Shown: piece by piece, positions 15,129-63,919 of the stretch
Layout of the letters: every line of letters starts with the position of its first letter
Position numbering within the stretch: position 1 is the first letter of the stretch
Assembly (NCBI GenBank): GCA_964494385.1
Contig: CAZBSE010000003.1
Location: 7,849 to 71,848 of the forward strand
Reading direction: 5' to 3'
Origin: an uncultured Actinomycetota bacterium
GTDB lineage: Bacteria; Actinomycetota; Humimicrobiia; Humimicrobiales; Humimicrobiaceae
Length of the DNA: 64,000 nt
Translations under genes and position numbers: made by a program
Notes under the pieces: model-generated
The model's database searches: none
What the model was told of the DNA's origin: nothing
Seen by the model: only the letters and a program-made list of their open reading frames with translations

Positions 15129-15208
15129 TCGAAATTTTGAATAAATACAGAATTAAAATATAATTAAAACAAGAAAAATTTCTAAATCCCCGGAGGAGTC
15201 AATTAAAA

Positions 15209-16597: not shown

Positions 16598-16638
16598 TTA
16601 ATGCCAAAAAACAATACCGCGGGAAGATTTGGCGAAAT

Positions 16639-16654
16639 GTTTCACGTGAAACAA
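16639..16654. promoter_or_regulatory. parS: parS centromere-like site (perfect 16-bp palindrome TGTTTCACGTGAAACA), 43 nt upstream of the mnmG paralog start
   Basis: This is an exact match to the Firmicutes-type parS consensus tGTTtCACGTGAAAca. The parA and parB genes lie 4 kb downstream. Confidence 0.8.
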
Positions 16655-16697
16655 AAAATAATTTAATCGGAATTAAAAATAAGGGCATTAAGAGAAA

Positions 16698-17987: not shown

Positions 17988-18022
17988 AATGGAATATTGA
18001 GTAATTTAAGAAAGCGGAGATC

Positions 18023-20625: not shown

Positions 20626-20758
20626 AGGGCATTGTATTAATGCATTATAATGTATAATTGTCTAAAAGCATAAATGGGGGGATGTGCTATTATTGATGAG
20701 GTTTATAGATATGGTTATCAAGAATAGAAAAACAAGAGAAACCATAAGGAAAGGATAT

Positions 20759-32212: not shown

Positions 32213-33367
32213 ATGTTTATGAATAGCAGGGAGCGTATAATTGCCACACTGAATCATAAGGAGCCGGACTGCATCCCCCTTGATCTGGGCGGAACAATTG
32301 TTTCTTCTATTACTAAAAATTCTTACATCAGTTTGAAGAAGTATTTAAATATGAAAGTTGGAGATATAAAGATACTGGACCACTCCCAGCAACTGCCTTA
32401 TCTCGACGAAGAGCTTCTGCAGAAATTGAATGTTGATATACGGATGGTAAAAACAGATTACGATAGTAACGCTGAGCAGAAATATACAGAGAAAGGGGAT
32501 TATTACTATTACTATGATCGGTGGGGAGCAAAACTCCGTATGCCGAAAGAAAACGGCCATTATTTTGATTATATTGGATTTCCGATTAATGACATATGCA
32601 TGGAAGAATTAAAAAATTATAGATGGCCGGAATTGGATGATCAAGAGTTAATTTTTAAACATAAACAGAAGGCAAAATATCTTTACGAAAATACTGGTTA
32701 CGCTTTAGCAGGAACTGCGGTGTTTGGCGGAGGAGTGTTTGAACAGCCGGCAAGGATAATGGGTATGGAGCGTTTTCTTACCAGTATTGCCCTTAATGAA
32801 AAATTTGCAGATACAGCCATGGAGAAAGTAGCTGAACTGTATATTGAAAATTGCAGGTGCTATCTTGACGAAATAGGTAAATATATTCAGGTATTTATTT
32901 ACTGGAATGATATAAGCGGCCAAACGGGGCCATTAATATCACCAAAAGTGTATAGGCGTTTAATAAAGCCTAAAGACAAGAGAATAATAGAGATGGTAAA
33001 ATCTAAAACCGATGCTAAATTCTTTTACCATTGTTGCGGGGCGATAAGAGAATTTATTCCTGATTTTATTGAAATAGGAGTTGATATTTTAAATCCGGTA
33101 CAAGTTTCGGCCGCAGGTATGGGGACAGCAGGTTTAAAGAAAGAATTTGGAAATGACATGAATTTCTGGGGAGGGGGTTGTGATACCCAGCATATTCTTC
33201 CATTTGGTACGCCGGCTGAAGTTAGAGAGGAAGTTAAAAGAAGGATAAACGATCTTGCGGAAGGCGGCGGGTTTGTTTTTAGTGCCGTTCATAATATTCA
33301 GGATGAAGTTCCACCCAAAAATATAATGGCAATGTTAGAAGTCTTAGAGGAATTGAAAAAGTATTAG
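32213..33367 (+). CDS. uroporphyrinogen decarboxylase (URO-D)/MtaA-CmuA family protein, copy 1
   Basis: The URO-D-like fold is recognisable (LNHKEPDCIPLDLGG ... DILNPVQ). An HCCG motif (FYHCCGAIRE) is reminiscent of the Zn-binding His/Cys of methylcobamide methyltransferases. Confidence 0.75.
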   Translation: MFMNSRERIIATLNHKEPDCIPLDLGGTIVSSITKNSYISLKKYLNMKVGDIKILDHSQQLPYLDEELLQKLNVDIRMVKTDYDSNAEQKYTEKGDYYYYYDRWGAKLRMPKENGHYFDYIGFPINDICMEELKNYRWPELDDQELIFKHKQKAKYLYENTGYALAGTAVFGGGVFEQPARIMGMERFLTSIALNEKFADTAMEKVAELYIENCRCYLDEIGKYIQVFIYWNDISGQTGPLISPKVYRRLIKPKDKRIIEMVKSKTDAKFFYHCCGAIREFIPDFIEIGVDILNPVQVSAAGMGTAGLKKEFGNDMNFWGGGCDTQHILPFGTPAEVREEVKRRINDLAEGGGFVFSAVHNIQDEVPPKNIMAMLEVLEELKKY

Positions 33368-33417
33368 TTAAAAAATATTGATGAAATGATATTTAAAGAA
33401 TGTAAAAGGTAGAAGCA

Positions 33418-34512
33418 ATGATAAGCCCAAAAGAAAGAGTGCTGGCAGCTTTAAATCATATAGAGCCTGATAGGGTACCCAGGCTGGCAAGTTTCACTCC
33501 GGAATTTGCTGCTGAACTGCGCAGGCATTTTAAAATAAAGGGTGAATTGTTTAATCCCCATGGCGGTATTAATCATAAACTTGAGATTAAATTAGGAAAC
33601 GATATTCTACTCACTGCTCAGGGGTTTGCTAATTCTTATTACCAGAGACTTGACAGAGATTATACTGATGAGTGGGGAGTCTTGTGGAAAATTATTGAAT
33701 ACGGAACAAAAAATGGTTCGGGGAGATATACTGAAATATCAGGAAATCCCTTAAAAGATGATAAATCTATAGAAAACTACATCCCGCCTGACCCTGCTAT
33801 TGAATCCCGCTATGAACCTTCAAGAAGGCTGATAAAAGAGTTTGGGAAGGAATATCCCGTTATGGGTGTAATTGTTACTACTATATTTGAGGCAGCCTGG
33901 GCTTTAAGGGGACTGGATAAGCTTATGATGGATTTTATTATAAATGAAGACCTTGCAAATAAGATTTTAGATATTCCTTTTAAATACCATCTTTATGCAG
34001 GTAAAAAACTTACCAGCCTGGGAGTAGATATTATATGGACCGGCGATGACGTAGGGGGACAGAGAGGAATGTTGATTTCACCTGAGATGTGGCGGAGGTA
34101 CCTAAAACCCAGAATGGAAAAATTATATTCTGAATTAAAATCTATTAATCCCGGCCTTAAGATTGCTTATCATTCAGATGGCAATATTTATCCCATAATA
34201 GATGAACTGGTGGAAATAGGACTTGATATTTTAAATCCGGTTCAACCAAAGTGTATGGATCCGAACTATTTAAAGAAGCGCTATGGGAAGAATTTAAGCT
34301 TCTGGGGCACCATTGATATTCAAGAAACCCTTCCCTTTGGAACTCCGGAACAAATAGAGCATGAAGTAAAGAACAGAATTAAAAATATGGGACCAGGAGG
34401 CGGATTTATAATCAGTCCGACCCATCACATGCAAATTGATACATCTATAGGTAATTTTTTTACTTTCTGGAATGCTGTAGAAAAGTACGGAAAGTATCCT
34501 ATTGTTATTTAA
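33418..34512 (+). CDS. uroporphyrinogen decarboxylase (URO-D)/MtaA-CmuA family protein, copy 2 (tandem paralog)
   Basis: It is homologous to copy 1 (LNHIEPDRVP ... DILNPVQ), but the HCCG position reads YHSDGN, so no Cys is present there. Confidence 0.75.
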   Translation: MISPKERVLAALNHIEPDRVPRLASFTPEFAAELRRHFKIKGELFNPHGGINHKLEIKLGNDILLTAQGFANSYYQRLDRDYTDEWGVLWKIIEYGTKNGSGRYTEISGNPLKDDKSIENYIPPDPAIESRYEPSRRLIKEFGKEYPVMGVIVTTIFEAAWALRGLDKLMMDFIINEDLANKILDIPFKYHLYAGKKLTSLGVDIIWTGDDVGGQRGMLISPEMWRRYLKPRMEKLYSELKSINPGLKIAYHSDGNIYPIIDELVEIGLDILNPVQPKCMDPNYLKKRYGKNLSFWGTIDIQETLPFGTPEQIEHEVKNRIKNMGPGGGFIISPTHHMQIDTSIGNFFTFWNAVEKYGKYPIVI

Positions 34513-47200: not shown

Positions 47201-47869
47201 TCAAATACAGGTGGATAGAATAAGCTTGTGCAGATTGTAGGAGACAAGCAATTCTATAGATAACAGAGCTGCAGCTATTGCAGAAGGTAAAATTAAATAT
47301 TTACTCATCAAGGCGGATGCTTTACGGGAAAAAGGCGGGATCAAAAGTACCATTACCAGATTTACAAAATAAAATGTAAACAGGATTGAAAGTACTGACA
47401 GATAATAGTAAAGGGAACCTAAAAAATCAATTCTGAACAGGGTTAAAGCGATGAATACTGCCAGGATAAGGAGATAGATTATAAATTTTTGGGGCCTTTT
47501 AAAAAGCTTTCCTTTTTTTGACTGCTTATAATATTGAAATACGAAGACGGGGTAAGTTATGACCATAACCGATGAACCGCATAGCAGGCCGGTTATAAAC
47601 CTTATGTTATTATTTGTATTGTAAAGGCCAAAGTTGGAAGCAATGCCGTCAATTATCATGGATAGAAAAAAAATAGAAAATATTATTAAAATATAGGGTG
47701 GAGGAAGATCATTTTCTTTTCCCCTGAACATTATAAATAAAATTATGGCTGTAACAAAAAAGCCCATATAAATACCGCTGCACCTGGAACAGACAGGCAG
47801 CACTGCATTCCCGATAGCAAGGCTCCGGGAAGGCAGTTGATGGCAGACTGAAAAGCCTATTGTTTCCAT
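47201..47869 (-). CDS. DUF2085 family membrane protein (paralog a)
   Basis: CHQLPSRS...LPVCSRCSGIY matches the DUF2085 N-terminal signature, which is followed by multiple TM helices. Confidence 0.55.
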   Translation of the reverse strand: METIGFSVCHQLPSRSLAIGNAVLPVCSRCSGIYMGFFVTAIILFIMFRGKENDLPPPYILIIFSIFFLSMIIDGIASNFGLYNTNNNIRFITGLLCGSSVMVITYPVFVFQYYKQSKKGKLFKRPQKFIIYLLILAVFIALTLFRIDFLGSLYYYLSVLSILFTFYFVNLVMVLLIPPFSRKASALMSKYLILPSAIAAALLSIELLVSYNLHKLILSTCI

Positions 47870-50174: not shown

Positions 50175-50849
50175 TTGACAGTTATTTTAAAAATTTTAAA
50201 CTTTTTTGGCGCCGGTCTATGCCATCAGCAAGCTTCAAGATCGTTTGAGTTTGATGGGTTATATATGCCCATGTGTTCCAGATGTACGGGTATATACATA
50301 GGTTTTTTATTTTCCCTGGCAGCAGTTCTTATAATCGAAAGGAGAACAAAGGGAGAATTTCCTTCCGTAAAGACGGCACTGGTCACAATCGGGATCATAC
50401 TGATAATGGGTCTGGACGTAGTAGTTTCGACTTTAAAAATTTATAGTTCCAATAACTATATCAGATGCATCACCGGCTTTTTGGTTGGATGGTTTTTGGC
50501 GCCGGTCATGCTTTCACTGAAAAATATTTTGATGTGGGAAAAATTAATAAAAAAACCTTATCTTAACAGCAAGAAATATTTTTTTATATGGCTGGTTTGC
50601 GGAATTACAGTTATAGTGGCTTTTATGTTCAGCTACGGAAAGATTCTAATCTTCTGGGGGTTTAGTTCGATTCTGGGTACGATAACCATGATTGCATTTG
50701 TGGCATTAATATTATTCTTTGCTGTATGCCGTAAATTGGCCAATAGTATTAATTCATGGAAATATTACTTTTTAAGTCTGGCTGCAGGCGTTGCCGCCGG
50801 TACAGGATTTTTGGGACTTTTCTCTGCAGTAAGAGAATTTTTGATCTGA
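50175..50849 (+). CDS. DUF2085 family membrane protein (paralog b)
   Basis: LCHQQASRSF...MPMCSRCTGIY is the same signature seen in paralog a. Confidence 0.55.
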   Translation: MTVILKILNFFGAGLCHQQASRSFEFDGLYMPMCSRCTGIYIGFLFSLAAVLIIERRTKGEFPSVKTALVTIGIILIMGLDVVVSTLKIYSSNNYIRCITGFLVGWFLAPVMLSLKNILMWEKLIKKPYLNSKKYFFIWLVCGITVIVAFMFSYGKILIFWGFSSILGTITMIAFVALILFFAVCRKLANSINSWKYYFLSLAAGVAAGTGFLGLFSAVREFLI

Positions 50850-51024: not shown

Positions 51025-51858
51025 TTATTCTTTTGATTCATCCATACTTCCCGGCCTGTAACCTTCAAGATCCAGGGTAATATATAAAAATCCTATTTTT
51101 TTAAATTTTTTTAATATTTTTTCCCTCAAATTACTTTGGGCCAGTTTACGGATTTCATCCTTTTCTATTTCTATTCTGGCCACAGGGTATTGATATCTTA
51201 CCCTTTTCTGTTTAAAACCAAGAGAATGAAGATATTCTTCCGCTTTTTCGATTTTTCTCAATTTTGATACCGAAATCTTTTCTCCGTATGGGAATCTTGT
51301 CAGAAGGCAGGAAAGGGCCGGTTTGTTCCAGGTGGGAAGGTGCAGTATTTTAGAATATTTTTTTATATCTTCCCTGGTCAGGCCGCTTTCGGCAAGAGGG
51401 TTTCTGATGTCAAGTTCATTCAGCGCCTTTCGGCCGGGGCGGAACGTATGAAGATCATCGTAGTTAGTTCCGTCGGCTATGATATTGAAGTTATATCTGT
51501 CCTTTATGGAAATTAATTTTAAAAAAAGCTCTTTTTTACAAATATAGCACCTGTTTATAGGATTTTTCCGTAATGTCTCTAATTCCAGCAGGTTTAAATA
51601 AAAAATTATATGCCTGCATTTTAAGAGCCCGGTAATTTTTTTTGCTTCCAGGAGTTCCTTTTTGGGAAATACCGGAGATTTTGCAGTTACCGCAATTACA
51701 TTTTCACCTAGTACTTCAACGGCAAGCTTTAAAAGAAAGCTGCTGTCAGTACCTCCGGAAAATGCTATAATCACAGATTCATAAGATTTGAGAACTTTTT
51801 TTAATTTATTAATTTTCCTGCTGTTCATAATCATTCCATTATTTTTGCCCGGGAGCAT
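51025..51858 (-). CDS. larE: ATP-dependent sacrificial sulfur transferase LarE-like PP-loop ATP pyrophosphatase
   Basis: It has the PP-loop AFSGGTDSS, the conserved Cys region SCLLTRFPYG and a C-terminus (LHSLGF..VRVRY....ARIE...ITLDLEGYRPGSM) that matches the LarE family. Confidence 0.75.
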   Translation of the reverse strand: MLPGKNNGMIMNSRKINKLKKVLKSYESVIIAFSGGTDSSFLLKLAVEVLGENVIAVTAKSPVFPKKELLEAKKITGLLKCRHIIFYLNLLELETLRKNPINRCYICKKELFLKLISIKDRYNFNIIADGTNYDDLHTFRPGRKALNELDIRNPLAESGLTREDIKKYSKILHLPTWNKPALSCLLTRFPYGEKISVSKLRKIEKAEEYLHSLGFKQKRVRYQYPVARIEIEKDEIRKLAQSNLREKILKKFKKIGFLYITLDLEGYRPGSMDESKE

Positions 51859-51988: not shown

Positions 51989-53164
51989 ATGAAGGATATT
52001 GTATATATTGACTGCTTTTCAGGGATAAGCGGCGATATGATGGTTGGTGCGCTGCTTGATATGGGATTGGATTTTTCATTTCTTAAAAATGAATTGAAAA
52101 AGCTGGATATCAGCGGTTACAGCATTGATTGCAGAGAAGTTAAAAGGGGTTCGATTAAAGCAAAAAAGTTTGATGTAAAAATAGCCGGCCCCCAGCCAGA
52201 CAGAGATTACAGAGACATAAAAAGAATAATTGGAAGCAGCAAACTGGATGCAGAAGTAAAGAAGATTTCTCTGGATATTTTTAAATTGATTGCGGAAGCA
52301 GAGGCGAAGGTTCACGGTCATGATGTGGAAAGGATACATTTCCATGAGATCGGAGCATTGGATTCCATAATTGACATCGTTAGTGCAGCAATAGGTATAA
52401 AAAGTTTAAACACCGGATTATTCTACAGCAGGAGGATACCTCTGGGCTCGGGGTTTGTAAACGGTACGCATGGGAAATTACCTGTTCCCGCACCTGCTAC
52501 AATCGAGATATTAAGAGGGCTTCCGGTTTTTGGGGGTAAGTTCAATTTTGAAGCGACAACTCCTACCGGGGCTGCCATAATAAAATCAATAGCAATCGGA
52601 TACGATGGGGTCCCGCCTTTGATTATTGAAAAAGTTGGTTATGGAGCAGGCAGCAGGGAAGATAAAGGAATCATTAATGTTTTAAGGATCTTAAGCGGGG
52701 CCGCTAAAGACGGACATGGGGCCAGGGCCGAAAACCTGATTATGCTTTCTACAAATATTGATGACAGCAATCCGGAGATTATAAGTTATCTTCAGCAGAG
52801 ACTATTTAAAAATAAAGCACTTGATGTATGGACAGAGCCTATTTACATGAAAAAAAGCAGGCCTGCTTTTAAGTTGTGTGTACTCTGTGATAGGCAATCA
52901 GAGTCTTCGATGGTCGATACCGTGCTGATGGAATCAACAACCCTTGGTATTAGAAGGCAGGAAGTCATAAGATATTCAGCTGGCAGGGAGATTAAAACTG
53001 TCGGCCTGCCATACGGAGAGGTTAGAGTGAAAATAGGCATACATGCTGGCAAAGAGGTAACTGTTTCGCCTGAATTCGAATCCTGCCAAAAACTGGCAGA
53101 AAAAACAGGCATGCCTTTGAAAAAAATATATCAGGATGCCGTTTTGTTTTTTTCCAAAAGATAA
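51989..53164 (+). CDS. larC: nickel-pincer cofactor nickel insertion protein LarC (DUF111)
   Basis: The N-terminus VYIDCFSGISGDMMVGALLDMG is the LarC family hallmark. It is 391 aa long. Confidence 0.8.
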   Translation: MKDIVYIDCFSGISGDMMVGALLDMGLDFSFLKNELKKLDISGYSIDCREVKRGSIKAKKFDVKIAGPQPDRDYRDIKRIIGSSKLDAEVKKISLDIFKLIAEAEAKVHGHDVERIHFHEIGALDSIIDIVSAAIGIKSLNTGLFYSRRIPLGSGFVNGTHGKLPVPAPATIEILRGLPVFGGKFNFEATTPTGAAIIKSIAIGYDGVPPLIIEKVGYGAGSREDKGIINVLRILSGAAKDGHGARAENLIMLSTNIDDSNPEIISYLQQRLFKNKALDVWTEPIYMKKSRPAFKLCVLCDRQSESSMVDTVLMESTTLGIRRQEVIRYSAGREIKTVGLPYGEVRVKIGIHAGKEVTVSPEFESCQKLAEKTGMPLKKIYQDAVLFFSKR

Positions 53165-54234
53165 TATTTTAATATCTCCTGCAGTACAGCCACTGTGGGA
53201 ACCGCAATTAAAAGTCCCCAAATGCCGAATAATGCACCGCCTGCAATAAGGGAAAAAATTATAATGCCGGGATGTACCCCTACTTGATATTTCAATATAT
53301 TCGGAGAGATGAAGTAATTATCTATTTGCTGGATAGCTATAAACAACAGGATAACCAGTAAGGCCTTTAATGGTGAAATGAACAGAGCTGCCAGTGCGGC
53401 AGGTATGGCTCCTATTATGGGACCCAGGAGAGGAATCATATTGGAGAGTCCGGCTATAAAGCCAAGCAGTACCGCAAAATCTACTTTTAAAACCAGCAGC
53501 ACAACTGTACATAGGATACCGATAATGACGGATATTAACAACTGCCCCCTGATATATCTGCCGGCAACTTTATTAATTTTATCCAGAATAATAGCTGCCT
53601 GATTTTTAAATCTTTTTGGTATTATTTTTATAAATATGGTTTTTATTCTGTTTGTATGATTTAGTATATATAATCCAAGGAGCGGTCCCACTATAATATA
53701 AAGAATTATATTAAGTAAGGTCCTGCCGACTGTAGTTGCACTCTGAAATATATTAATTTCTTCCAGGTTGATCCTGCTGATAAAATATTGGGTAATGCTG
53801 CTGGCATCTTTAGGTATTATATCCTTGCCTATTAAGTTTTCAATGCTTTTTATTATGGTGTTTTCCTTTAGAAAATTGTTCGTGATAATGGTAAGGTTTT
53901 CCAGATATAATGGGAACCTTTCTATGAATGTTTCAAACTGATCAATTATTGCGGGGATGATAAAAAAGAATATCACAAAAATAATACCTGTAAAAATAAC
54001 ATATGTTATGGCTACCGCAAAAATCCTGCGCATTTTCTTTTGCAGTAAAGATACTAGAGGAGACAAAAGACAGACTATGGCCACAGCCAGAATCAGCGGT
54101 ATGATAGCTATTTTTATTAAGTATACGATATAAAAGAAAAGCGCCGCTATTAAAAGAAAACCTATTATTGACCATGAAAAAATTCCGATATTCTTTATAT
54201 TCTTTATACCGTTTGAAGGTTTTTTAATTCTCAT
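53131..54234 (-). CDS. AI-2E (PerM/UPF0118) family transporter
   Basis: It has 8 TM helices and the conserved C-terminal stretch GLLIAVPTVAVLQEILKYY. Confidence 0.75.
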   Translation of the reverse strand: MRIKKPSNGIKNIKNIGIFSWSIIGFLLIAALFFYIVYLIKIAIIPLILAVAIVCLLSPLVSLLQKKMRRIFAVAITYVIFTGIIFVIFFFIIPAIIDQFETFIERFPLYLENLTIITNNFLKENTIIKSIENLIGKDIIPKDASSITQYFISRINLEEINIFQSATTVGRTLLNIILYIIVGPLLGLYILNHTNRIKTIFIKIIPKRFKNQAAIILDKINKVAGRYIRGQLLISVIIGILCTVVLLVLKVDFAVLLGFIAGLSNMIPLLGPIIGAIPAALAALFISPLKALLVILLFIAIQQIDNYFISPNILKYQVGVHPGIIIFSLIAGGALFGIWGLLIAVPTVAVLQEILKYYLLEKNKTAS

Positions 54235-54360: not shown

Positions 54361-54747
54361 ATGCCGGAAGAATCAGTTGCCGCTTATGTTAACAATATTA
54401 TGACTTTTGCCCTATTTACAGCAGTAATAATATTAGTATTTGTGGCACTTTTTTTATTATCACGTACTTTAATCTATAGGGTCGGGAGCAAACAAAGGAC
54501 AGAACCTGAAAAAGAATTTTCTCTTTACAGGCCTGTAAACTATAGAAGAGATCCAAATCGATTTAAAAATATGTTTATTCTGGGGACTATATTTATTTCT
54601 ATAGTTTTTTTTATATTCCTTATCATTTCTGTACTTAATTATGCCGTAGAGCCCGCAGTAGGTCTGAACCTGTATTTAATCGGGGGCATGATATTTTATT
54701 TTATATTAATAGCGGCGTATATAGTTAAATCCGGAATTATAAGTTAG
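54361..54747 (+). CDS. NuoA (ND3)-like small membrane subunit, tentative. It is the first gene of the complex-I-like operon.
   Basis: It is 128 aa long with 3 TM helices. A loop between TM1 and TM2 (EPEKEFSLYRPV) lies in the position of the NuoA PYECG loop. The NuoB-like gene follows 12 nt downstream. Confidence 0.4.
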   Translation: MPEESVAAYVNNIMTFALFTAVIILVFVALFLLSRTLIYRVGSKQRTEPEKEFSLYRPVNYRRDPNRFKNMFILGTIFISIVFFIFLIISVLNYAVEPAVGLNLYLIGGMIFYFILIAAYIVKSGIIS

Positions 54748-54758
54748 GAGCCAGCAGG

Positions 54759-55154
54759 GTGCCATACATGATCAGAAGTAATCTGAATATACTGGTAGCA
54801 GGATTCGGATGCTGCAAGCAGGAAATATTTGCAACTCAGGGTCCGCTATATGATATTCAAAGATTTGGTGTGAATTTTGTCAATATTGCCGAAGATGCAG
54901 ACATACTGGTTATTCAGGGTTTTTTTAATGAAAAGGGCATACAAAGGATTTTAAGTATTTATAACAGGATGTACTCACCAAAAGGCATAATTGCAGTAGG
55001 GAGCTGTGTTCTGAATGAAAATTTATTTAAATCGGAAAGCAAGCTGCTCAGGCGGTTCAGAAAAAAAATAAAAATAAATATGTATGTTCCAGGCTGCCCT
55101 CCCAGACCGGAGGCCTTCATTCACGCTATTCTGGGAATCCTTAGCAGGAAATAA
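54759..55154 (+). CDS. NuoB/NiFe-hydrogenase-small-subunit-like [4Fe-4S] protein
   Basis: The N2-cluster ligand motifs GCCKQE, GSCV and PGCPP are present. Confidence 0.8.
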   Translation: MPYMIRSNLNILVAGFGCCKQEIFATQGPLYDIQRFGVNFVNIAEDADILVIQGFFNEKGIQRILSIYNRMYSPKGIIAVGSCVLNENLFKSESKLLRRFRKKIKINMYVPGCPPRPEAFIHAILGILSRK

Positions 55155-55189
55155 CTAAAAAAAACAAGTACTTATTTATATTTACACAA

Positions 55190-56677
55190 ATGATTGATGA
55201 TATTTATAATAAAATTTATTCTTCCTCAGAATCCGTAATGATAGGAGAAGCGGGGAAAAATTTAGAATTTATTTTAAAGGATAGGATAAAAACTATTTAT
55301 AAGGCTGGCCAGGATTTGTTGATGGAGGTATCTAAAGAAAACCTCTCTTCCGTGGTGAAGGAACTGAAGGAGAATCCCGAGCTTAAAGTAGGCAGCTTCC
55401 AGAGCGTAGCTGCTTATAGAGAAAAGAGTAAAAAATTTTTAATTATAGGACTTTCATCCTTTACCAATAATTTCTCTGTTCTGATAAAAGTAGAAATATC
55501 CGAAAAAGAAATTACGAGAGTTATGGGCATGATGGGGAAGTTTTATAAGGCATTTAATTTTTATAAGGACAGAAGCGGAATAATTACGGAAAAATCAGAT
55601 ATTGAGATATTTGCTCAGAGACAGGATGGTCTGGATTGTTTTGACTTAACCATCTCAGCGGACGGTGATAGGGCCAAGGAAGCTTTTATCGATACCGGAA
55701 TCAGCAAGATTATGGGCAGCGAATACTATAAGGGTTTGGGAATATATAACCTCATAGCTTATATCGGAAGATTTGACTGGAAGGCAGGTATATTCCCGGA
55801 ACTCTGCCTTTGCGGCGCTTTTGAAGTTCTGCTCCAGCTGAAGGCGCCTGAAAGAGCCAGGTATATCAGGATACTTTTGTGTGAGCTGTATAGAGTATCT
55901 AACCATATATATTTTATATCAAATATATGTAGTGTCCTGGGATGCGATGTTGCTTATAATTTTTCTCTTCTGGAAAGAGAAAGAGTTTTGAGGCTTATAG
56001 AAATTATAACCGGTGCAAGGATTATACCTAATTTCATAAGAATAGGCGGTGTAAAAAAAGATCTAAGTGAGGAGGCATTATCCGCCATCAAAAAAATTTT
56101 ACCGCTCTTATATAGGAATATAAAAAGAATTGAAAAAATAATAAAAGATGACTTTACAGTAATAGAGAGATTAAAGGATATTGGAATTATAGGCAAAGAT
56201 ATCGCCGTAGATTATGGCATATCGGGCCCGAACCTAAGAGCTTCGGGGGTAAGATATGATTTAAGAAAGGATAAGGATTATATATCCTATAAGGATTTTT
56301 TATTTACATCTCCTATAGGAAGAAAAGGGGATTGCATGGACAGGATGCTGGTTAGATTTAATGAAATATACCAATCTTTAAGAATAATAAGCCAGGCCGT
56401 AAATAAATTTCCTTCAGGGGCCTATATAAAGAAGGTAAATTTATCTCATATAGAATTTCAGTTTGGAGCAGTATCATATGGTGTCGAGTGCCCGCACGGT
56501 TTATTCAAAATCTATATAGAGATTGAAAAAAACAATATAAATGCAATGGTGGTAAAAGGCCCTTCTATTAACAGCCTTATTTTAAGCGAGGAGATAATGA
56601 AAGGCAGCAGAGTAGAAGATATCAACTTGATTCTTACCAGTCTTGATATAAGTGCCGGTGAAATAATAAGCGATTAA
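55190..56677 (+). CDS. NuoD (49-kDa)-like subunit with N-terminal NuoC-like extension. It lacks the NiFe-binding C-terminal CxxC.
   Basis: PERARYIRILLCELYRVSNH matches the conserved NuoD / large-subunit helix. The C-terminus (TSLDISAGEIISD) has no Cys where hydrogenases carry DPCxxCxxH. Near the N-terminus only CLC is found where hydrogenases have RxCGxC. Confidence 0.7.
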   Translation: MIDDIYNKIYSSSESVMIGEAGKNLEFILKDRIKTIYKAGQDLLMEVSKENLSSVVKELKENPELKVGSFQSVAAYREKSKKFLIIGLSSFTNNFSVLIKVEISEKEITRVMGMMGKFYKAFNFYKDRSGIITEKSDIEIFAQRQDGLDCFDLTISADGDRAKEAFIDTGISKIMGSEYYKGLGIYNLIAYIGRFDWKAGIFPELCLCGAFEVLLQLKAPERARYIRILLCELYRVSNHIYFISNICSVLGCDVAYNFSLLERERVLRLIEIITGARIIPNFIRIGGVKKDLSEEALSAIKKILPLLYRNIKRIEKIIKDDFTVIERLKDIGIIGKDIAVDYGISGPNLRASGVRYDLRKDKDYISYKDFLFTSPIGRKGDCMDRMLVRFNEIYQSLRIISQAVNKFPSGAYIKKVNLSHIEFQFGAVSYGVECPHGLFKIYIEIEKNNINAMVVKGPSINSLILSEEIMKGSRVEDINLILTSLDISAGEIISD

Positions 56678-56686
56678 AGGATAATA

Positions 56687-57619
56687 ATGCTGGTGGTCAT
56701 AAAAAAGATGTTTTACATTCTCGCGATACTGATAGTGAATTTATATATATGCGAGTATATAGGCAATAAATTCTTAGCCAGGATGGAGCTTAGGAGAGGC
56801 TATAGAATAACCAGACTAAGAGGTGCAGGGTTTCCGCTGGTAAGGCTGTTTAAATATTTATCCAAGGATAATAAGTTAAATATCTGGACTTTTTTTATCT
56901 TTTTACTCTCTTTTCTGATATGGAGCGCAGTTCCAATTACTTCGAATTTAGTTTTGATAGAAATAGATTACAGTCTTTTGGTTGCAATAATTTTTTATAT
57001 AGGGCTCATAGTCATGCTGCTTCTTAATTCAAGCAGAACTTCCTATAGCGCCTTATTTAGCGAGACCAGTAAAAAAATATTTATTTTGCTGTCTTTTTTG
57101 ATTCCGGGTTTATTCAGTATGGCAGGTATTGTTTTTATAAACAGAACATTAAGCTTAAGAGAAATTGTAAATTCCCAGAACCAGTACTGGAACATAATTT
57201 TTCAACCTCTTGGATTTATGACATTTTTTATATCAATACTGCTGCAGTTGAAAATACTGGGTATAGGCAGCGGAAGTTATCTATCCGATGATATAAAGAT
57301 AGGCAGGGAGGGAACGGGTTTGGGAAAAACAGTTGAAAAGATTGCTGTCTATATGATTGTCTTTTTCTTGATTATGATTTTAAACTTATTATATTTGGGG
57401 GGCTGGCAGAATATGCATATCATCAGGGGAGAGATAATGATTGCCGTAAAGTTTTATTTAATGTTCATGATCTTATTGTTACTGGACAAGGCTACTGCCA
57501 GGATAGACAGCTATAAACTTTTGGTCAGGGTTAATTGGAAATTTTTAGTTCCCGTTTCATTGGTTAATTTTATAGTCACGCTTGGATTTTTCATAAGCAG
57601 GAACAATAATTTAATTTGA
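56687..57619 (+). CDS. NuoH (ND1)/HycD-like membrane subunit
   Basis: ARMELRRGYRITRLRGAGFPLVRLFKYLSKD matches the NuoH N-terminal loop consensus (R.Q.R.GPN..G..GLLQP.AD..K...KE), with GPN diverged to GYR. It has 8 TM helices. Confidence 0.7.
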   Translation: MLVVIKKMFYILAILIVNLYICEYIGNKFLARMELRRGYRITRLRGAGFPLVRLFKYLSKDNKLNIWTFFIFLLSFLIWSAVPITSNLVLIEIDYSLLVAIIFYIGLIVMLLLNSSRTSYSALFSETSKKIFILLSFLIPGLFSMAGIVFINRTLSLREIVNSQNQYWNIIFQPLGFMTFFISILLQLKILGIGSGSYLSDDIKIGREGTGLGKTVEKIAVYMIVFFLIMILNLLYLGGWQNMHIIRGEIMIAVKFYLMFMILLLLDKATARIDSYKLLVRVNWKFLVPVSLVNFIVTLGFFISRNNNLI

Positions 57620-57637
57620 TGGGGTGTTTTTACTAAA

Positions 57638-58060
57638 ATGTTAAGGATGATTAAGAATTTTTTTATCAATATATGGAATGTTATAAGGAAACCCAGGACT
57701 GTTGCTTATACGGGGGAAAAGATGATAATTCCCGAAGGCAGCAGGGGTGTTCTCCATTTAAAGCTGGATCTGGATTCCCTGGAGGTCATTTGTAACGGCT
57801 GCGGGGTATGCAGCATGATTTGTCCGCAGGATAGTATAGAAGTAAAGAAGAGAGTTGATGATAATGGGAGAGAAGTTCTGGATGAATTTTATCTGGATTT
57901 GAGAAAATGCATTTTTTGTGGCAATTGTGTCGAATTCTGTGAAAGGAATGCTATTAATTTATCCTACAAATATCAGCTTGCCGAGTTTAGTGAGAAAAAT
58001 TTAAAATTAGAAAAAATCGAATTAATAAAACCATCAAGCAAGATAAGAGATTTCTGGTAA
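57638..58060 (+). CDS. NuoI-like 2x[4Fe-4S] ferredoxin subunit
   Basis: Two CxxCxxCxxxCP/E motifs are present (CNGCGVCSMICP and CIFCGNCVEFCE). Confidence 0.85.
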   Translation: MLRMIKNFFINIWNVIRKPRTVAYTGEKMIIPEGSRGVLHLKLDLDSLEVICNGCGVCSMICPQDSIEVKKRVDDNGREVLDEFYLDLRKCIFCGNCVEFCERNAINLSYKYQLAEFSEKNLKLEKIELIKPSSKIRDFW

Positions 58061-58067
58061 GGATATT

Positions 58068-58613
58068 ATGTCATTTGAAAGTCACCTGATAATTATAATA
58101 ATACACTACATAAGTCTTTCCGGACTGGTGATATCCGGACTTCTGGCATTGTTTCTTGCCGGCGGGAGAAAAAAATTATTTTTTATGTTCCTTTCTTTTT
58201 TATTTGCAGGAATTTTAAACTTTGTCTATTATTCCGGTGTCTTATTTTTTATAGCCGGAATCATTATTATCTTCTTTTTTTTAGCATTATACTTATTTGT
58301 TTCCCAGGTAGAATTGTTTAACACGGGTCAGGAATTAAAAAAAGAGGAAAGGAAATTATCCCGCAGTGCCGCAGGCAGTGTTATGAGCGTTCTTCTGCCG
58401 TTTTTATTGTGCTCCGCTGCTGGTTATTTAGTTTATGATTATACGTCCGATTTTTTAGACAAAGTCTCAGGCATGGAAAATATTTCTATTTTAAGTCTGG
58501 GAGATATTGCTAAGAGACTACTGTCTGATTACAGCTTGGCCGTGATCCTTACAATCTCATTATTGTTCCTATCCTTTTTGTGGTTTTTAATTATGGGACA
58601 GGAGGAGAAATGA
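58068..58613 (+). CDS. NuoJ (ND6)-like membrane subunit
   Basis: It is 181 aa long, and its C-terminal helix LSDYSLAVILTISLLFLSFLWF resembles the NuoJ terminal TM helix. Confidence 0.55.
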   Translation: MSFESHLIIIIIHYISLSGLVISGLLALFLAGGRKKLFFMFLSFLFAGILNFVYYSGVLFFIAGIIIIFFFLALYLFVSQVELFNTGQELKKEERKLSRSAAGSVMSVLLPFLLCSAAGYLVYDYTSDFLDKVSGMENISILSLGDIAKRLLSDYSLAVILTISLLFLSFLWFLIMGQEEK

Positions 58614-58951
58614 GCTTTCAATTTATAATATATTTTAACCTTGCCCTTTTTCTGCTGGGAGTGTTTGGAATCTTATACAGCAAGGATATTGTATCACTGT
58701 TTATTTCCTATCAGTTTATAATTATCTCTGCTGCTGTTAATTTCCTGAGCTTTTCAAAGTTGTTATATAAGTATTCAATGTGGGGTGTAATTTTTATTAT
58801 TTTCGGAGTTGTATCTATTTACTTTTTAATGTTTTGTATTATCTATTACATTTACATGAAGCTGGATCCACTGCAGAAAAGAGTTTTTTACAGGAATTTC
58901 AGATTATTTAAAATAACCAGAAGTGACTGGTGGGGAGAAGATAATTTATAA
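58610..58951 (+). CDS. NuoK (ND4L)-like membrane subunit
   Basis: MSFQFIIYFNLALFLLGVFGIL...AAVNF fits the NuoK pattern. A GGAGGAG RBS precedes the start, and the ATGA overlaps the NuoJ stop. Confidence 0.6.
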   Translation: MSFQFIIYFNLALFLLGVFGILYSKDIVSLFISYQFIIISAAVNFLSFSKLLYKYSMWGVIFIIFGVVSIYFLMFCIIYYIYMKLDPLQKRVFYRNFRLFKITRSDWWGEDNL

Positions 58952-58954
58952 GAT

Positions 58955-60442
58955 ATGAACTTTTTAATTTACATCAGTGAAAAAATAAATCCTCTGCAGA
59001 GTATAATCGTTCTGTCTGCTTCAGTTTTGATTTCTTCTTTTTTCGCGGTCTCCGGGAGAAAAGCCTTTAAGAAATTTATAATTGTAATTACTTTTATATC
59101 CTTGATTTCCGCTTTTTACCTTAATATTTATAGTTTTATATCAGCCGGTAATTTTTCCAGCTCCCTTCTGACCTTCGGGACGCTGCAGGTAATCGAGGTA
59201 AGCATGATTTTATTCAGCACGCTTAACCTGCTTCTCTTTATTGCCATATACGAAATAGACTGTAACCATTTTATTAAAATATTAATGCTGCTTTTATTTT
59301 CAGCCATCTGTGCTATTTTTGTGGTCGTAGCCGGAAACTTTATCTTATTTTTTACCAGCCTGACACTATTCGTTTTGACCATATTCCAGCTTGCAGCCAG
59401 CCTAAACCTGAACATAAGCAAGTCAAGACCTCATATACTCGGATATTTCCTAAGACCGGTCCTGACAGTGATTCTTTTCTTTTTCGGGTTTTCATTATTT
59501 TATGGTGCTGCTGAATTTAAGAGCATGGACCAGATTTTGAATTCGGAAAGTATTTCTAATCCGCTGATAGCGCTGGGCTTGATTATTTTTGGAATTGCGA
59601 TGTATCTCTATTTTTTCTTATTTCCTTTTCAGAATCCCTATCTGGGGATGGTGAAAAGAAGTAGATTTTCTTCAAATGCTGTTATATGGTTTCTTTATTT
59701 TCCGGTAGGATTTTTCATATTTCTAAAATTTGGTGATTTATACAATTATTATATAGGAAAAAGCAGCATTTATATGTCCATAACTTTTATGGTAATTGCC
59801 TTCGTATGTATGCTTGCAGGGAATATTGGAGCAATTACCACAGGCAGCATCAGAAGAATATTATCATTTTTATTCCTATTTTTTACAGGTATTTTCCTGC
59901 TTAATCTTTCCATGTTTTCTGCAGGAATTATAAGCAGTGTCTCAACTAAGTGGATCAATATGGCAAATATCCTCCTTATAATGCTTAGTTTTATACCAAT
60001 AAGCAGTGTTTTTAACGAAGTTGAAAAAAACACAGGAAGTGATTCCATTAATGGCTTAGCAGGATTTGGCAGAAGTAATATTTTTATTGTAATAAATCTT
60101 ATAATATTATTTTTATCATGGCTGATGCCGGCACTTTATATTTTACCGCTTATGAGGAGTAGAATGGTTTCATCAGGCGCAGTAGCCTTGAATATAATAT
60201 TAATGGCTATAATAGCGATTGTAATTATATTCCTGACCGTAAATATTTTTAGGGTAATTATCCAATTTTTTAAAAGATCTCCCGGCGGAACGGTGCAAAA
60301 AATCAGATTTCCCCGATTTTTCTATATTTATATTACTTTTTTTACTTTAATCATACTTGCGGTTTCAGTATTGTGCCTGCTGGAAATATCAGGTATAAGT
60401 ACCGGAACCGGTAGTTTTAAAATAACTGACTTTAATCTTTAA
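58955..60442 (+). CDS. NuoL/M/N-type antiporter-like membrane subunit (single copy)
   Basis: A 495-aa polytopic protein of about 14 TM helices. It is the last gene of the operon. Confidence 0.5.
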   Translation: MNFLIYISEKINPLQSIIVLSASVLISSFFAVSGRKAFKKFIIVITFISLISAFYLNIYSFISAGNFSSSLLTFGTLQVIEVSMILFSTLNLLLFIAIYEIDCNHFIKILMLLLFSAICAIFVVVAGNFILFFTSLTLFVLTIFQLAASLNLNISKSRPHILGYFLRPVLTVILFFFGFSLFYGAAEFKSMDQILNSESISNPLIALGLIIFGIAMYLYFFLFPFQNPYLGMVKRSRFSSNAVIWFLYFPVGFFIFLKFGDLYNYYIGKSSIYMSITFMVIAFVCMLAGNIGAITTGSIRRILSFLFLFFTGIFLLNLSMFSAGIISSVSTKWINMANILLIMLSFIPISSVFNEVEKNTGSDSINGLAGFGRSNIFIVINLIILFLSWLMPALYILPLMRSRMVSSGAVALNIILMAIIAIVIIFLTVNIFRVIIQFFKRSPGGTVQKIRFPRFFYIYITFFTLIILAVSVLCLLEISGISTGTGSFKITDFNL

Positions 60443-60471: not shown

Positions 60472-61242
60472 TTGGAAAAGCAAAAAAAAAGATTTAATAT
60501 AAAGCATTTTATGATTATTATCTTGGTGCTGCTTATAGCAATAATAGTAATAATAAGTGTAAATAAATTTTCCTTTAAAAAAGAATATGAGCCGGGCACT
60601 GCACTTGCTTGTGAACTGCCCAGATATAGATTTATAGATATGGACAATATAGGAATCACGGGCGATGCTGATAATGATAAAATAAATGACCAGAAAGATA
60701 TTATGCAGGGTGCAAAAAAGCAGCTCGAAAATCCGGCCAGGAATATTCTTCTGGAAAAGGAAGAACCCAATTATTATCAGGGTGGAAATCCGCCTGAAAA
60801 TCTGGCGATTAGCACAGATATAGTGGCCAGGGCTTTCCTGGAAGCAGGTTTTGATTTAAGGGGACTGGTATACGAAGATATAAGCAGTAATTTTGAAAAG
60901 TATCCCCTAAAAGAGATCTGGAACCAGAAAGTTTGCGATCCCAATATTGATTACCGCAGGATACAGAATCTGGAAATTTTCTTCAAAAGAAATGCAAAAG
61001 ATCTGGATATATTATTTAATGCCCTGGATGAAGAGAAATTGAATTCGTGGCTCCCGGGGGATGTAATTTTTTTTGATATGGATAAAGATGGTTACAGTGA
61101 TACCGCGGGCATCATTTCAGATAGCACCACCAGAGATGGTGTCCCCAAGGTGATTTATAACTACATTGATTTCGAATATACTGTGGAGAAAGATATTTTA
61201 GGTGAAAAGATTATCACCGGTCATTACAGGTTTCCCCGATAA
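60472..61242 (+). CDS. DUF1287 domain protein with N-terminal TM anchor
   Basis: Sequence blocks typical of DUF1287 are present (ISTDIVARAF ... DPNIDYRRIQNL ... GDVIFF ... AGIISD). Confidence 0.5.
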   Translation: MEKQKKRFNIKHFMIIILVLLIAIIVIISVNKFSFKKEYEPGTALACELPRYRFIDMDNIGITGDADNDKINDQKDIMQGAKKQLENPARNILLEKEEPNYYQGGNPPENLAISTDIVARAFLEAGFDLRGLVYEDISSNFEKYPLKEIWNQKVCDPNIDYRRIQNLEIFFKRNAKDLDILFNALDEEKLNSWLPGDVIFFDMDKDGYSDTAGIISDSTTRDGVPKVIYNYIDFEYTVEKDILGEKIITGHYRFPR

Positions 61243-61422: not shown

Positions 61423-62466
61423 ATGCGTTTTACAGAGAAAGTTTATGGGGAAAGTATTTTGAGAAAATCAAAGGTACCCGGAGTAAATTTATTTAAAAAA
61501 ACAGCAGTTTCAGCAATTGTTTTTTTGATATCGATTTTAGTTCTGCTTATCTCACCGGGAAAGGCAGAAGCAATCACTTTAAAAGAATTAGGGAATGCGA
61601 TTGCCAGTCTCAGCAGCGATGAAGAGAACCTGCTGGAAGAAATACTGATATCTGAAGCAGAAGTTGAAAATAAGAAAAACGAGATTGAATCCTTGAACAA
61701 AGAGCTTGAGATATGCGAGAATCAGCTGAAGGAGCTGAATAAAGCCAAAAGAGAGTTATTGAAGGGCATCGAGGAGAAAAGGGAGGTCCTGGCTGAGAAA
61801 ATAATCTTCTCTTATAAGTATGAGAGCAATAATGTGGCAAAGATTATAATTGGCGCCAGGGATCTGAATGAGGTTGTAAATAACATTTACCTTTTTAGGA
61901 ATATAATGAGCAGGGAAGCTGAAATCATAGAACAGCTTCGTTTTGAAAAGGAAGAATATGATAGGGTTTCACGTAAATCCGAAGAGAAAAAGAAGGAAAT
62001 TGAGACCGCCAGGGATAGAATTACTGTTGAAAAGGATGAGCTGTCAAGGAGAATGGGGGAGAACAAAATCCTGCTTGAAAAGGTAAAAGGCGAGAAATCG
62101 GAGATCCAGAGCCTCTTGACCGAAATAAAGAAAAGGATAGCACAAATCCAGCCTCCCGGGCTCTCACTGATAGGAGAATGGGATATGATAGCCACGGCCT
62201 ATTATGCTTTTGGAAAGGGAGGCAATGATATAAATGGAAATGGAATAACGGCAATAGGGCTAAGGGCACGGGAAGGGATAGTTGCCGTGGATCCAAGGAT
62301 TATCCCCCTGGGGACAAAACTTTATATACCCGGCTACGGTGAAGCCCTGGCTGCGGATACGGGGGGATGGATAAAGGGCAACAGGATTGATCTGTGTTAT
62401 GAATCTCTGGAAGAATGCTTCAGATACGGCAGGAGAAAGATAAAGATATATCTGGTTGAAGATTAA
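61423..62466 (+). CDS. 3D-domain (MltA/YuiC-like) cell-wall protein with signal peptide and long coiled-coil
   Basis: The C-terminus IAVDPRIIPLGTKLYIPGYGEALAADTGGWIKGNRIDLCY is a 3D domain. The N-terminal half is an EK-rich coiled coil. Confidence 0.7.
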   Translation: MRFTEKVYGESILRKSKVPGVNLFKKTAVSAIVFLISILVLLISPGKAEAITLKELGNAIASLSSDEENLLEEILISEAEVENKKNEIESLNKELEICENQLKELNKAKRELLKGIEEKREVLAEKIIFSYKYESNNVAKIIIGARDLNEVVNNIYLFRNIMSREAEIIEQLRFEKEEYDRVSRKSEEKKKEIETARDRITVEKDELSRRMGENKILLEKVKGEKSEIQSLLTEIKKRIAQIQPPGLSLIGEWDMIATAYYAFGKGGNDINGNGITAIGLRAREGIVAVDPRIIPLGTKLYIPGYGEALAADTGGWIKGNRIDLCYESLEECFRYGRRKIKIYLVED

Positions 62467-63289: not shown

Positions 63290-63919
63290 GTGGCAGAATA
63301 TCAGGAACTGGCAGATGCTATTATAAAGGGCGATAATATAGCAAGCAAAGATATTGCGCAGAAACTGGTCGATGAAAATATGTCACCTGTGGAAATTCTA
63401 GATAACGGGCTGGTGCCCGGGATGGATATGGTGGGTAAAAAGTTTAAAAATAATGAGATTTACCTGCCTGAAGTATTAATAGCGGCAAGAGCCATGAAAT
63501 CTGCAATGGAAGTCATAAAACCAATGCTCACAGAATCGGGCATAGAGACCAAAGGAAAGATAATTATAGGCACGGTACAGGGCGATGTCCATGACATCGG
63601 TAAAAATCTGGTGGGCATGATGCTTGAAGGAGGGGGATATACTGTAATTGACCTGGGAGCCGATGTCCCCCATGAAAAATTTTTAGGTGAGATAAAAAAG
63701 AACAGTGTAAAACTGATAGGCCTGTCGGCACTTCTTACCACTACAATGATAGGCATGAAGACGGTAATTGGCATGCTTAAAGAAGATAAGGAGACTTCCG
63801 ATGTAAGAGTTATGGTCGGCGGCGCGCCGCTGACACAGGAATTTGCTGATTCCATAGGCGCTAACGGTTATGCTCCTGATGCAACCGGTGCCGTGGAGCT
63901 TGCCGGCAAGCTGCTTTGA
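63290..63919 (+). CDS. methyltransferase cognate corrinoid (B12-binding) protein, MtaC/MtbC/MttC-like, GTG start
   Basis: An N-terminal B12-binding-2 cap helix domain is followed by a Rossmann B12 domain with the DxHxxG motif (GDVHDIGKN). Confidence 0.8.
   Translation: MAEYQELADAIIKGDNIASKDIAQKLVDENMSPVEILDNGLVPGMDMVGKKFKNNEIYLPEVLIAARAMKSAMEVIKPMLTESGIETKGKIIIGTVQGDVHDIGKNLVGMMLEGGGYTVIDLGADVPHEKFLGEIKKNSVKLIGLSALLTTTMIGMKTVIGMLKEDKETSDVRVMVGGAPLTQEFADSIGANGYAPDATGAVELAGKLL

Follow-up and report, generated by a model that had tools for sequence, protein, structure and literature searches.

This report describes a compact eight-gene operon related to respiratory complex I, encoded at positions 54,361 to 60,442 of a 64,000-nucleotide (nt) stretch of contig CAZBSE010000003.1 (assembly GCA_964494385.1), from an uncultured bacterium of the family Humimicrobiaceae (Actinomycetota). 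The whole 64-kb stretch that was analysed is referred to as the window. An original prediction, made from the letters of the window and a list of its open reading frames (ORFs), had placed eight contiguous genes here on the plus strand, and the ORF coordinates bear this out. The intergenic gaps are 3-35 nt long, and the eight genes are therefore considered to form one operon, with the following content:

54361-54747, plus strand: A-like gene in the NuoA position (128 amino acids, aa), a three-helix membrane protein whose NuoA identity is not demonstrated
54759-55154, plus strand: B, NuoB-like (131 aa), short at its N-terminus, with the four ligands of the N2 [4Fe-4S] cluster, including a tandem Cys-Cys
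55190-56677, plus strand: fused NuoC-like/NuoD-like subunit (C/D, 495 aa), without NiFe ligands and with an acceptor pocket that appears remodelled
56687-57619, plus strand: H, NuoH-like membrane anchor (310 aa), with most of the conserved charged residues of the quinone cavity and E-channel gone
57638-58060, plus strand: I, NuoI-like 2x[4Fe-4S] ferredoxin subunit (140 aa), with eight cysteines
58068-58613, plus strand: J-like gene in the NuoJ position (181 aa), with five transmembrane helices (TMs); NuoJ identity suggested, not demonstrated
58610-58951, plus strand: K, NuoK-like (113 aa from the ATG at 58610), with both canonical glutamates gone
58955-60442, plus strand: antiporter-like, NuoN-derived subunit (495 aa), without the TM5 Glu, the TM7 Lys, the TM8 Lys and the conserved His

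The start of K in the ORF list is a GTG at 58580, while the true start is the ATG at 58610, which overlaps the stop codon of J (ATGA) and is preceded by AGGAGGAG, holding an AGGAGG ribosome-binding site. A fusion of J and K in two relatives was considered and ruled out, as translation reveals an in-frame stop that separates the two genes.

Subunit assignment and conservation of the operon

The original prediction had named homologues of subunits A, B, C/D, H, I, J and K and one antiporter subunit. Searches with hidden Markov model profiles support B, C/D, H, I, K and the antiporter-like subunit, and leave the A-like and J-like proteins unmatched by sequence or profile. B matches the Pfam family Oxidored_q6 (E=1.3e-17), and H matches NADHdh (E=1.5e-22). 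The D part matches Complex1_49kDa (PF00346, E=6e-59) and aligns over its full length with canonical NuoD in hhalign (E=6.5e-35). Subunit I is recognised by the NuoI model TIGR01971 (E=4.5e-27), with Fer4 domains in Pfam. K is recognised only weakly by Pfam and NCBIfam, and its family profile finds NdhE (1.2e-9) and NuoK (3e-5) in the PDB. The antiporter-like subunit has no PF00361 match in the Pfam scan, but is found by the NCBIfam model of NuoN (E=8e-8), and its family profile matches NuoN in the PDB (E=1.6e-9). Support is weak for the NuoC-like N-terminal domain, at about residues 1-130 of C/D (E = 0.007-0.07). Every one of these matches lies under the curated NCBIfam cut-off (bits against cut-off: NuoB 105/116, NuoD model NF004739 246/360, NuoH 78/305, NuoI 94/113, NuoK 30/128, NuoN 32/408, FpoD 209/600), and the same goes for the models of FpoH, FpoI, FpoK, NdhH and NdhI. 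The profile scans thus agree with the earlier description of a reduced and strongly diverged complex-I-like operon with a single antiporter-like subunit. The lack of an NADH module was also predicted correctly: in 54 ORFs scanned across the window, Pfam finds no nuoE, nuoF or nuoG, nor any nuoL or nuoM, second antiporter-like gene or hyp gene.

The A-like gene is the first of the operon in all 28 related loci described below, and the J-like gene is always positioned between I and K. Neither protein matched anything in the Pfam or NCBIfam scans. No significant link to NuoA or NuoJ was obtained with their family profiles against all PDB sequences, with hhalign against canonical NuoA and NuoJ proteins encoded in a nuo locus from Desulfobulbaceae (L026), or in two profile searches of a 5.8-billion-protein set. 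In the AlphaFold2 models, the A-like protein (predicted local distance difference test score, pLDDT, of 66) has helices at residues 3-45, 65-96 and 102-123 with a long first loop, and the J-like protein (pLDDT 62) has three TMs, a loop, a TM, an amphipathic helix and a final TM. Foldseek against the PDB was uninformative with the A-like model. With the J-like model no match was significant (E>=0.35), and ranks 1-7 of 350,542 chains were taken by E. coli NuoJ, followed by NdhG and ND6 chains, an order that is suggestive of a NuoJ identity for this modelled protein. A few family members are labelled by JGI as subunit A ('subunit 3 (A)') or subunit J. Based on gene position, size and the three-TM and five-TM topologies, it is probable, although unproven, that the two proteins are descendants of NuoA and NuoJ.

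The fused C/D protein, of about 500 aa, has at least ~120 homologues with 37-100% identity among the matches listed, and their named sources are all 'Actinomycetota bacterium'. In public databases the proteins of this family go by 'hypothetical' or are automatically named NuoD. A scan of GTDB, with one genome per species, returned 26 loci, including Candidatus Hydromicrobium and Candidatus Humimicrobiaceae (class Humimicrobiia, formerly UBA1414); one canonical nuo locus was found too, in a Desulfobulbaceae metagenome-assembled genome (31% identity). According to tblastn, the eight genes follow the same order in every locus long enough to contain them. This order is identical in 25 GTDB species loci (56-86% identity in D) and in 28 related loci overall, down to the 37-40% identity of L028 and L029/L030, and all named sources are Humimicrobiia-type Actinomycetota. 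Each of the 28 loci holds a single antiporter-like gene, of the NuoN type.

All eight genes are under purifying selection. Pairwise ratios of non-synonymous to synonymous substitution rates (dN/dS) range from 0.05 to 0.45, with dS of at least 0.7 and mostly saturated. Constraint is strongest on I, B, C/D and H, with the lowest dN/dS of the operon in I (0.05-0.09), and weakest on the A-like gene (~0.4), while the antiporter-like subunit shows values of ~0.17-0.19. The conserved order together with this range of dN/dS indicates that the genes are functional and that the unit is ancient within its lineage.

These observations bear on the idea that the eight genes belong to a canonical complex I whose missing nuoEFG and nuoL/M genes are located elsewhere in the genome. 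An annotation of this kind exists for the UBA1414 genome Hakuba, to which NuoABCDGHIKLMN plus E, F and G have been assigned (PMC7325909). However, in all 28 loci the eight genes make up a compact, self-contained unit with an unrelated gene after N, every subunit scores under the NCBIfam Nuo cut-offs, and the catalytic residues that the canonical enzyme needs are missing, as detailed in the next section. In addition, two other UBA1414 genomes have been reported, by standard annotation, to lack an NADH:quinone oxidoreductase (PMC7325909). Judged from the 28 loci and the 64-kb window, a complex completed from elsewhere is considered very improbable.

Iron-sulfur wire, acceptor pocket and membrane arm

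The three-cluster iron-sulfur (Fe-S) wire is the most strongly conserved part of the complex. The Fe-S ligands had been predicted to be intact, and both sets are confirmed: GCC...C...C in the NuoB-like subunit and two CxxCxxCxxxC motifs in the NuoI-like one, so that all 12 Fe-S cysteines are present in the operon of the window. The motif of B reads 'GFGCC...GSC...PGCPP', with its CC aligned to the 'ACCAIE' of NuoB. The N2 ligands of B are kept throughout the family members examined, with one exception (L029), and the eight cysteines of I are kept in every member examined, including those at 37-40% identity. Since the ligands of both subunits are conserved, the electron wire of three [4Fe-4S] clusters, N6a/N6b in I and N2 in B, is taken to be intact.

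The exception belongs to a relative with 40% identity. In its B-like gene (9585-9980 of L029) the first of the tandem cysteines is Ala ('GAGACRNE') and three cysteines remain, which is reminiscent of MBS, where a proximal cluster with three Cys has been proposed to be the catalytic site. Such a variant might point to a reaction carried out at the cluster itself.

The fused C/D subunit carries no NiFe site, as had been predicted, and its C-terminus, SLDISAGEIISD, contains no NiFe cysteines. The original prediction had also placed a CLC motif where hydrogenases have RxCGxC, which proved to be a misalignment: RxCGxC pairs with RFDWKA (residues 194-199), and CLC lies about 10 residues downstream. 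The conclusion on the NiFe site is unaffected by this correction, given that RxCGxC corresponds to RFDWKA and DPCxxC to DISAGE, with no Cys at any of the four positions.

The residues that bind the quinone headgroup were located in a residue-level alignment with Nqo4 of T. thermophilus, whose numbering is used here, with the family represented by 34 C/D sequences. Tyr87 corresponds to Trp197, a position that is not fixed, being W in the clade of the window and Y, H or F in distant members. The preceding Asp86 is retained as the invariant Asp196. Asp139 is replaced by Val or Ile. In hhalign against canonical NuoD, the loop 'GPQHPxxHG' gives way to the family motif 'DGLDCFD', which contains no His, and the equivalent of His38 pairs with Leu148. 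As far as these alignments tell, the canonical triad Tyr87/His38/Asp139 is substituted. New invariant residues occupy the former active site, namely Cys208 and 'ECPHG' (433-437), the latter at the position where canonical enzymes have 'E(S/A)xRG'. The family-specific invariant motifs that have been gained are 'DGLDCFD', 'ECPHG', 'YLGGWQ' and 'DWWGED'.

Changes in the membrane arm affect H, K and the antiporter-like subunit. The earlier reading of GYR where NuoH has GP(N) is correct, as the alignment with canonical NuoH confirms; in the same protein ERK becomes (S/G)NK, QPxAD becomes FPxVR and YE becomes FL, and 'LQLKI--LGIGSGSY-L' stands in place of the acidic TM5-6 loop 'AETNRAPFDLAEAESEL'. 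K has Gln at the position of the TM2 Glu (His in some members), and every member has lost the 'AAEA' segment of TM3, which carries the second Glu.

For the antiporter-like subunit, E133, K217 and K247 of E. coli NuoN lie opposite Thr137, Tyr219 and Gly252. This extends to the whole family in a multiple sequence alignment that combines seven true NuoN sequences with 16 representatives of the family, the most distant at 30% identity. In 16/16 representatives the column of the TM5 Glu holds T, S, A, G, V or I, that of the TM7 Lys holds Y, F or A, and that of the TM8 Lys holds F, I, M or L, and the conserved His of NuoN is gone from all of them. The partner of the TM8 Lys shifts by three positions between methods, and it is never a charged residue. 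No conserved acidic residue occurs in the predicted TMs of this protein. Basic residues persist at two further places: the position of the TM12 Lys is K or R in about 9/16 representatives, and the K158-equivalent is K or R in most distant members and G or E in the clade of the window. Judged from these alignments, the canonical Glu/Lys/His chain, by which protons are carried in all characterised complex I, NDH-1, MBH and MBS enzymes, is missing from K, H and N across the whole family. In complex I, MBH and MBS, by comparison, the central charged axis is maintained (PMC8165549).

So massive a loss of functionally essential residues, with all subunits under the family cut-offs, might be expected of a decaying, non-functional remnant of complex I. 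That explanation is already effectively refuted by the intact ORFs of constant length, by dN/dS values of 0.05-0.45 at saturated dS, by the gain of family-specific invariant motifs, and by the maintenance of the 12 Fe-S cysteines across 37-100% identity, B of L029 excepted.

Placement in the superfamily and proposed mechanism

The original prediction had labelled the operon as Ehr-like (energy-converting hydrogenase-related) or Fpo-like. By definition, an Ehr complex is related to the group 4 NiFe hydrogenases and contains Mrp-type subunits (PMC6349859), and the first label would here imply a group 4 [NiFe] hydrogenase relative that has lost its NiFe ligands. The absence of NiFe cysteines agrees with it, and so does the small number of subunits with one antiporter-like protein, as in Ech-type enzymes. 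The PDB bit scores for D (NdhH 163, Nqo4 163, MbsL 150, MbhL 113) and for B (NuoB 80, NdhK 78, MbhJ 77) are also nearly equal for the best complex I chains and for the closest MBS or MBH chain, and do not by themselves cleanly separate complex I from its MBH/MBS relatives.

The remaining evidence points to the complex I side. The best models for the D part are NuoD, FpoD and NdhH. No group 4 hydrogenase large-subunit model of Pfam or NCBIfam reaches E<=1 against it, and the only hydrogenase model listed is that of the F420-hydrogenase frhA (E=0.007). The tandem-Cys coordination of N2 seen in B is specific to complex I/NDH-1, whereas MBH has hydrogenase-type ligation and MBS three cysteines (PMC8165549). 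The family profile of H finds NdhA (6e-17) and E. coli NuoH (8e-14) in the PDB, with neither MbhM nor HycD among its matches; MbhG reaches only E=0.31 with the profile of K, and the antiporter-like profile retrieves NuoN chains only. H, K and N thus match Nuo/Ndh and not Mbh/Hyc/Mrp proteins. A phmmer search with the antiporter-like subunit in 1.84 billion representative proteins gave 66 matches at E<=1e-3 and 24 at E<=1e-30, and the nine outside-family matches scanned from its tail are all bona fide NuoN by TIGR01770. The operon also holds NuoK and genes in the A and J positions, which are a complex I trait, and no Mrp-type small subunits. Taken together, the tandem-Cys N2 motif, the NuoD/FpoD/NdhH models and the Nuo/Ndh-type relatives of H, K and N lead to the conclusion that the complex descends from the complex I/NDH-1/Fpo side and not from Ehr, as judged by profile scores, diagnostic motifs and membrane subunits. 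The Ehr label was therefore not upheld, and a hydrogenase relative of this kind is considered highly unlikely.

The Fpo-like class comes closer, sharing the absence of EFG, but L and M are also absent here, and the quinone ligands and the charged axis are lost. With these losses, the operon fits neither Ehr nor the Fpo-like class as they are defined. The nearest known systems are the 11-subunit complex I relatives (Nuo11, cyanobacterial and chloroplast NDH-1, and archaeal Fpo and Fpo-like complexes). They likewise have no NADH module, and they share with the operon a NuoB with tandem-Cys N2, a NuoD without NiFe ligands, a 2x[4Fe-4S] NuoI, the nuo gene order, homologues of NuoH, K and N, and small membrane proteins in the A and J positions; its best profile and PDB matches come from them. 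Their usual electron donor is ferredoxin (PMC8165549; PMC4453560). Unlike them, the operon has no NuoL or NuoM, its subunits fall under the curated cut-offs, its A-like and J-like proteins are unrecognisable by sequence, its quinone ligands are substituted, and the Glu/Lys residues of the E-channel and antiporter are lost. The FpoF/FpoO and Ndh-specific subunits of these relatives are absent as well.

Ech-type group 4 [NiFe] hydrogenases, with six subunits, resemble the operon in having one antiporter-like subunit, a NuoH-like anchor and peripheral subunits of the B, C, D and I types, and in lacking an NADH module; they depend on ferredoxin. Ech, however, carries NiFe cysteines, needs Hyp maturases, has no NuoA, J or K, and keeps the charged residues of its membrane subunits. 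Neither the NiFe cysteines nor Hyp maturases in the window nor a hydrogenase-type arrangement of the proximal-cluster cysteines is found here. Ehr, MBX and MBS are, like the operon, superfamily enzymes without a NiFe site whose acceptor is uncertain or not a quinone, and MBS is an example of new chemistry in a re-used pocket beside this cluster, the proximal one (PMC8165549). In contrast to the operon, they branch with group 4 hydrogenases, have Mrp-type modules and keep the charged membrane axis. MBS has a three-Cys proximal cluster and two vestigial NiFe cysteines, whereas here B has four cysteines (three only in L029) and none stands at the NiFe positions.

The reading that we favour, with a probability of about 0.55, is that the operon encodes a lineage-specific, vertically inherited and re-purposed offshoot of NuoEFG-less complex I, probably a ferredoxin-fed membrane oxidoreductase without canonical proton pumping. 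The complex would be pared down to the Q-module (NuoB, fused NuoC/D and NuoI) and the proximal membrane module (NuoH, the A-position and J-position proteins, NuoK and the NuoN-derived subunit), working as a membrane-anchored electron-transfer enzyme. At the NuoI end, a soluble donor of low potential would supply the electrons. The likeliest candidate is ferredoxin, since it is used by other relatives without the N-module and would fit an anaerobe with the Wood-Ljungdahl pathway, pyruvate:ferredoxin oxidoreductase (PFOR) and Rnf. Related UBA1414/Humimicrobiia genomes have been described as those of anaerobes that possess Rnf, PFOR, a V-type ATPase and the Wood-Ljungdahl pathway (PMC7325909), which amounts to a ferredoxin-centred metabolism. 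From NuoI the electrons would pass via N2 to an acceptor in a remodelled pocket at the B/D/H interface, with a predicted lining of the family-specific invariant residues Asp196, Trp/Tyr197, Glu204, Cys208 and Cys434-Pro-His436 and the 'DGLDCFD' loop. Redox-driven proton pumping of the canonical kind would not take place, and the membrane arm may serve mainly as an anchor, as a scaffold for acceptor access or in another non-canonical role.

A narrower version of this proposal, which we put forward only tentatively, is that the Fe-S wire was kept while quinone chemistry and the pumping axis were discarded, and that the new Cys/His/Asp-lined pocket by N2 receives a non-quinone substrate. If true, the superfamily would gain a fourth functional class in addition to its hydrogenases, sulfane reductases and quinone reductases, and the complex would be an 'uncoupled' complex I that occurs in nature.

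Several points weigh against the favoured reading. Tyr still stands at the Tyr87-equivalent in many distant members, and a conserved Asp/Glu lies four residues, or one helical turn, past the lost Asp139, so that quinone reduction by a modified site could still occur. In the membrane arm, polar or basic residues are left that might form an alternative pathway, namely the TM12 K/R, R167, R300/R301 and R433, to which K255 of H and Gln35/Asn44 of K can be added. If the five membrane subunits did nothing more than anchor the complex, the strong purifying selection acting on them would be difficult to account for, which leaves room for a non-canonical translocation of ions or substrates. All residue correspondences come from alignments with 20-30% identity, for which the results of HMMER, hhalign and MAFFT were compared with one another. 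Finally, the original prediction had left the electron donor and acceptor unassigned, and indeed nothing in the operon or among the neighbouring genes points to either of them.

From these points arises the main rival explanation, in which the complex is a minimal oxidoreductase of ferredoxin and menaquinone (or another quinone) that pumps H+ or Na+ through a non-canonical pathway of Gln, Asn, Tyr, Ser and Arg residues, with one pumping module. It accounts for the purifying selection on all membrane subunits and for the H-A-J-K-N arrangement, which is that of the proximal pump module. The K/R residues at the TM12 Lys and K158 positions, the conserved polar residues within TMs and the Tyr of distant members fit it as well, and the relatives inhabit alkaline or saline settings and have a Na+-coupled Rnf and V-ATPase (PMC7325909). 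On the other hand, every characterised member of the superfamily keeps the central charged axis (PMC8165549), while this family lacks throughout the TM5 Glu, TM7 Lys and TM8 Lys of N, both glutamates of K and the acidic TM5-6 loop of H, and His38 and Asp139 of the quinone site are absent. A pump of this kind is thus seen as a possible but rather unlikely explanation.

Partial nuo operons without EFG are well known (PMC4453560), and so are Ehr, MBX and MBS. Within the literature searched, which did not cover the paper naming the Humimicrobiia (Jiao et al. 2021), no complex I relative was found with N as its sole antiporter-like subunit, nor any enzyme of the complex I lineage lacking both the charged axis and the quinone triad. 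The way in which complex I couples electron transfer to pumping is still debated, and the debate centres on the Glu/Lys/His chain, which starts at the quinone site and reaches the antiporter-like subunits by way of NuoH, A, J and K. The family offers a natural experiment in this respect, in which the wire and the fold of the proximal module have been preserved by selection while the chain, the quinone ligands and two pump modules are gone. If active, the complex would show what the scaffold is capable of without canonical coupling, whether new acceptor chemistry, a new ion pathway or pure anchoring. The complex is also relevant to the energy metabolism of the Humimicrobiia-type Actinomycetota, anaerobes that are widespread in sediments and groundwater and in soda and serpentinising systems. 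Metabolic reconstructions of these bacteria either overlook their 'Nuo' genes or wrongly score them as an ordinary NADH dehydrogenase.

Genomic neighbourhood

The genes closest to the operon are the following:

60472-61242, plus strand: DUF1287 membrane-anchored protein (Pfam DUF1287, E=1.5e-34), directly downstream of the N-like gene
53131-54234, minus strand: AI-2E family transporter (Pfam AI-2E_transport, E=3e-64), divergent from the operon
51989-53164: larC (Ni_insertion), for nickel-pincer cofactor synthesis, as larE
51025-51858, minus strand: larE-like gene, without a Pfam match at 1e-6

The DUF1287 gene starts 2-29 nt past the N-like gene in the window and its relatives (2-4 nt in L028 and L029/L030), with homologues at 15360-16121 in L028 and 15361-16149 in L029. 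A pattern scan found no terminator between the two genes, and the DUF1287 gene is probably co-transcribed with the operon. A role as a ninth subunit was considered and rejected, given that DUF1287 is classed with the NlpC/P60-type (papain-like) amidases (PMC10318531) and that a protein of cell-wall type with a 3D domain follows. This protein, encoded at 61423-62466 downstream of DUF1287, combines a coiled coil with the 3D domain. DUF1287 and this protein may be transcribed together as a pair with a cell-wall role, and nothing obvious connects them with electron transport.

On the other side, the AI-2E transporter is located immediately upstream, in divergent orientation, in the window, L028 and L029/L030, and not far away in most of the remaining loci. 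Na+/H+ antiporters are known among the AI-2E/UPF0118 proteins, and a shared regulatory or ion-homeostasis link with the operon is conceivable. The transporter gene adjoins the operon in the window and in L001-L009. About 3 kb of extra DNA, at about 6.4-9.1 kb in locus coordinates, lies between them in L010, L012, L014-L017, L020, L022-L025 and L027.

The larE-like and larC genes are syntenic in most relatives, and no LarA-type enzyme that would use the cofactor was seen in the window. The presence of larC, a nickel-pincer cofactor gene and not a hyp gene, raised the idea of a nickel-pincer cofactor in the D-like pocket. This was rejected, as it is a matter of neighbourhood only and the divergent permease stands between, often with the ~3 kb more. 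Further upstream, two DUF2085 paralogues (47201-47869 on the minus strand and 50175-50849 on the plus strand) lie on either side of a PHP/RNase P p30-like gene and a gene for a DUF4190 protein. The distant relatives L028-L030 show the same DUF2085-PHP arrangement upstream of their operons.

Elsewhere in the window, two adjacent genes of the URO-D family, of the MtaA/MtbA-like methyltransferase type, are found at 32213-34512, and a corrinoid protein (B12-binding_2 plus B12-binding) at 63290-63919. Together they suggest a methyl-group metabolism that feeds into a corrinoid-dependent pathway, consistent with an anaerobe of the Wood-Ljungdahl type. The rest of the window is otherwise housekeeping, and includes the chromosomal replication-origin region (dnaA-dnaN/oriC) at 8746-22370, about 43 kb from the operon. 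This region comprises dnaN and dnaA on the minus strand and yidC, jag/KhpB, mnmE, a GIDA-like gene, mnmG, rsmG, parA and parB on the plus strand, and the GC skew switches sign at ~10-12 kb, between the two blocks.

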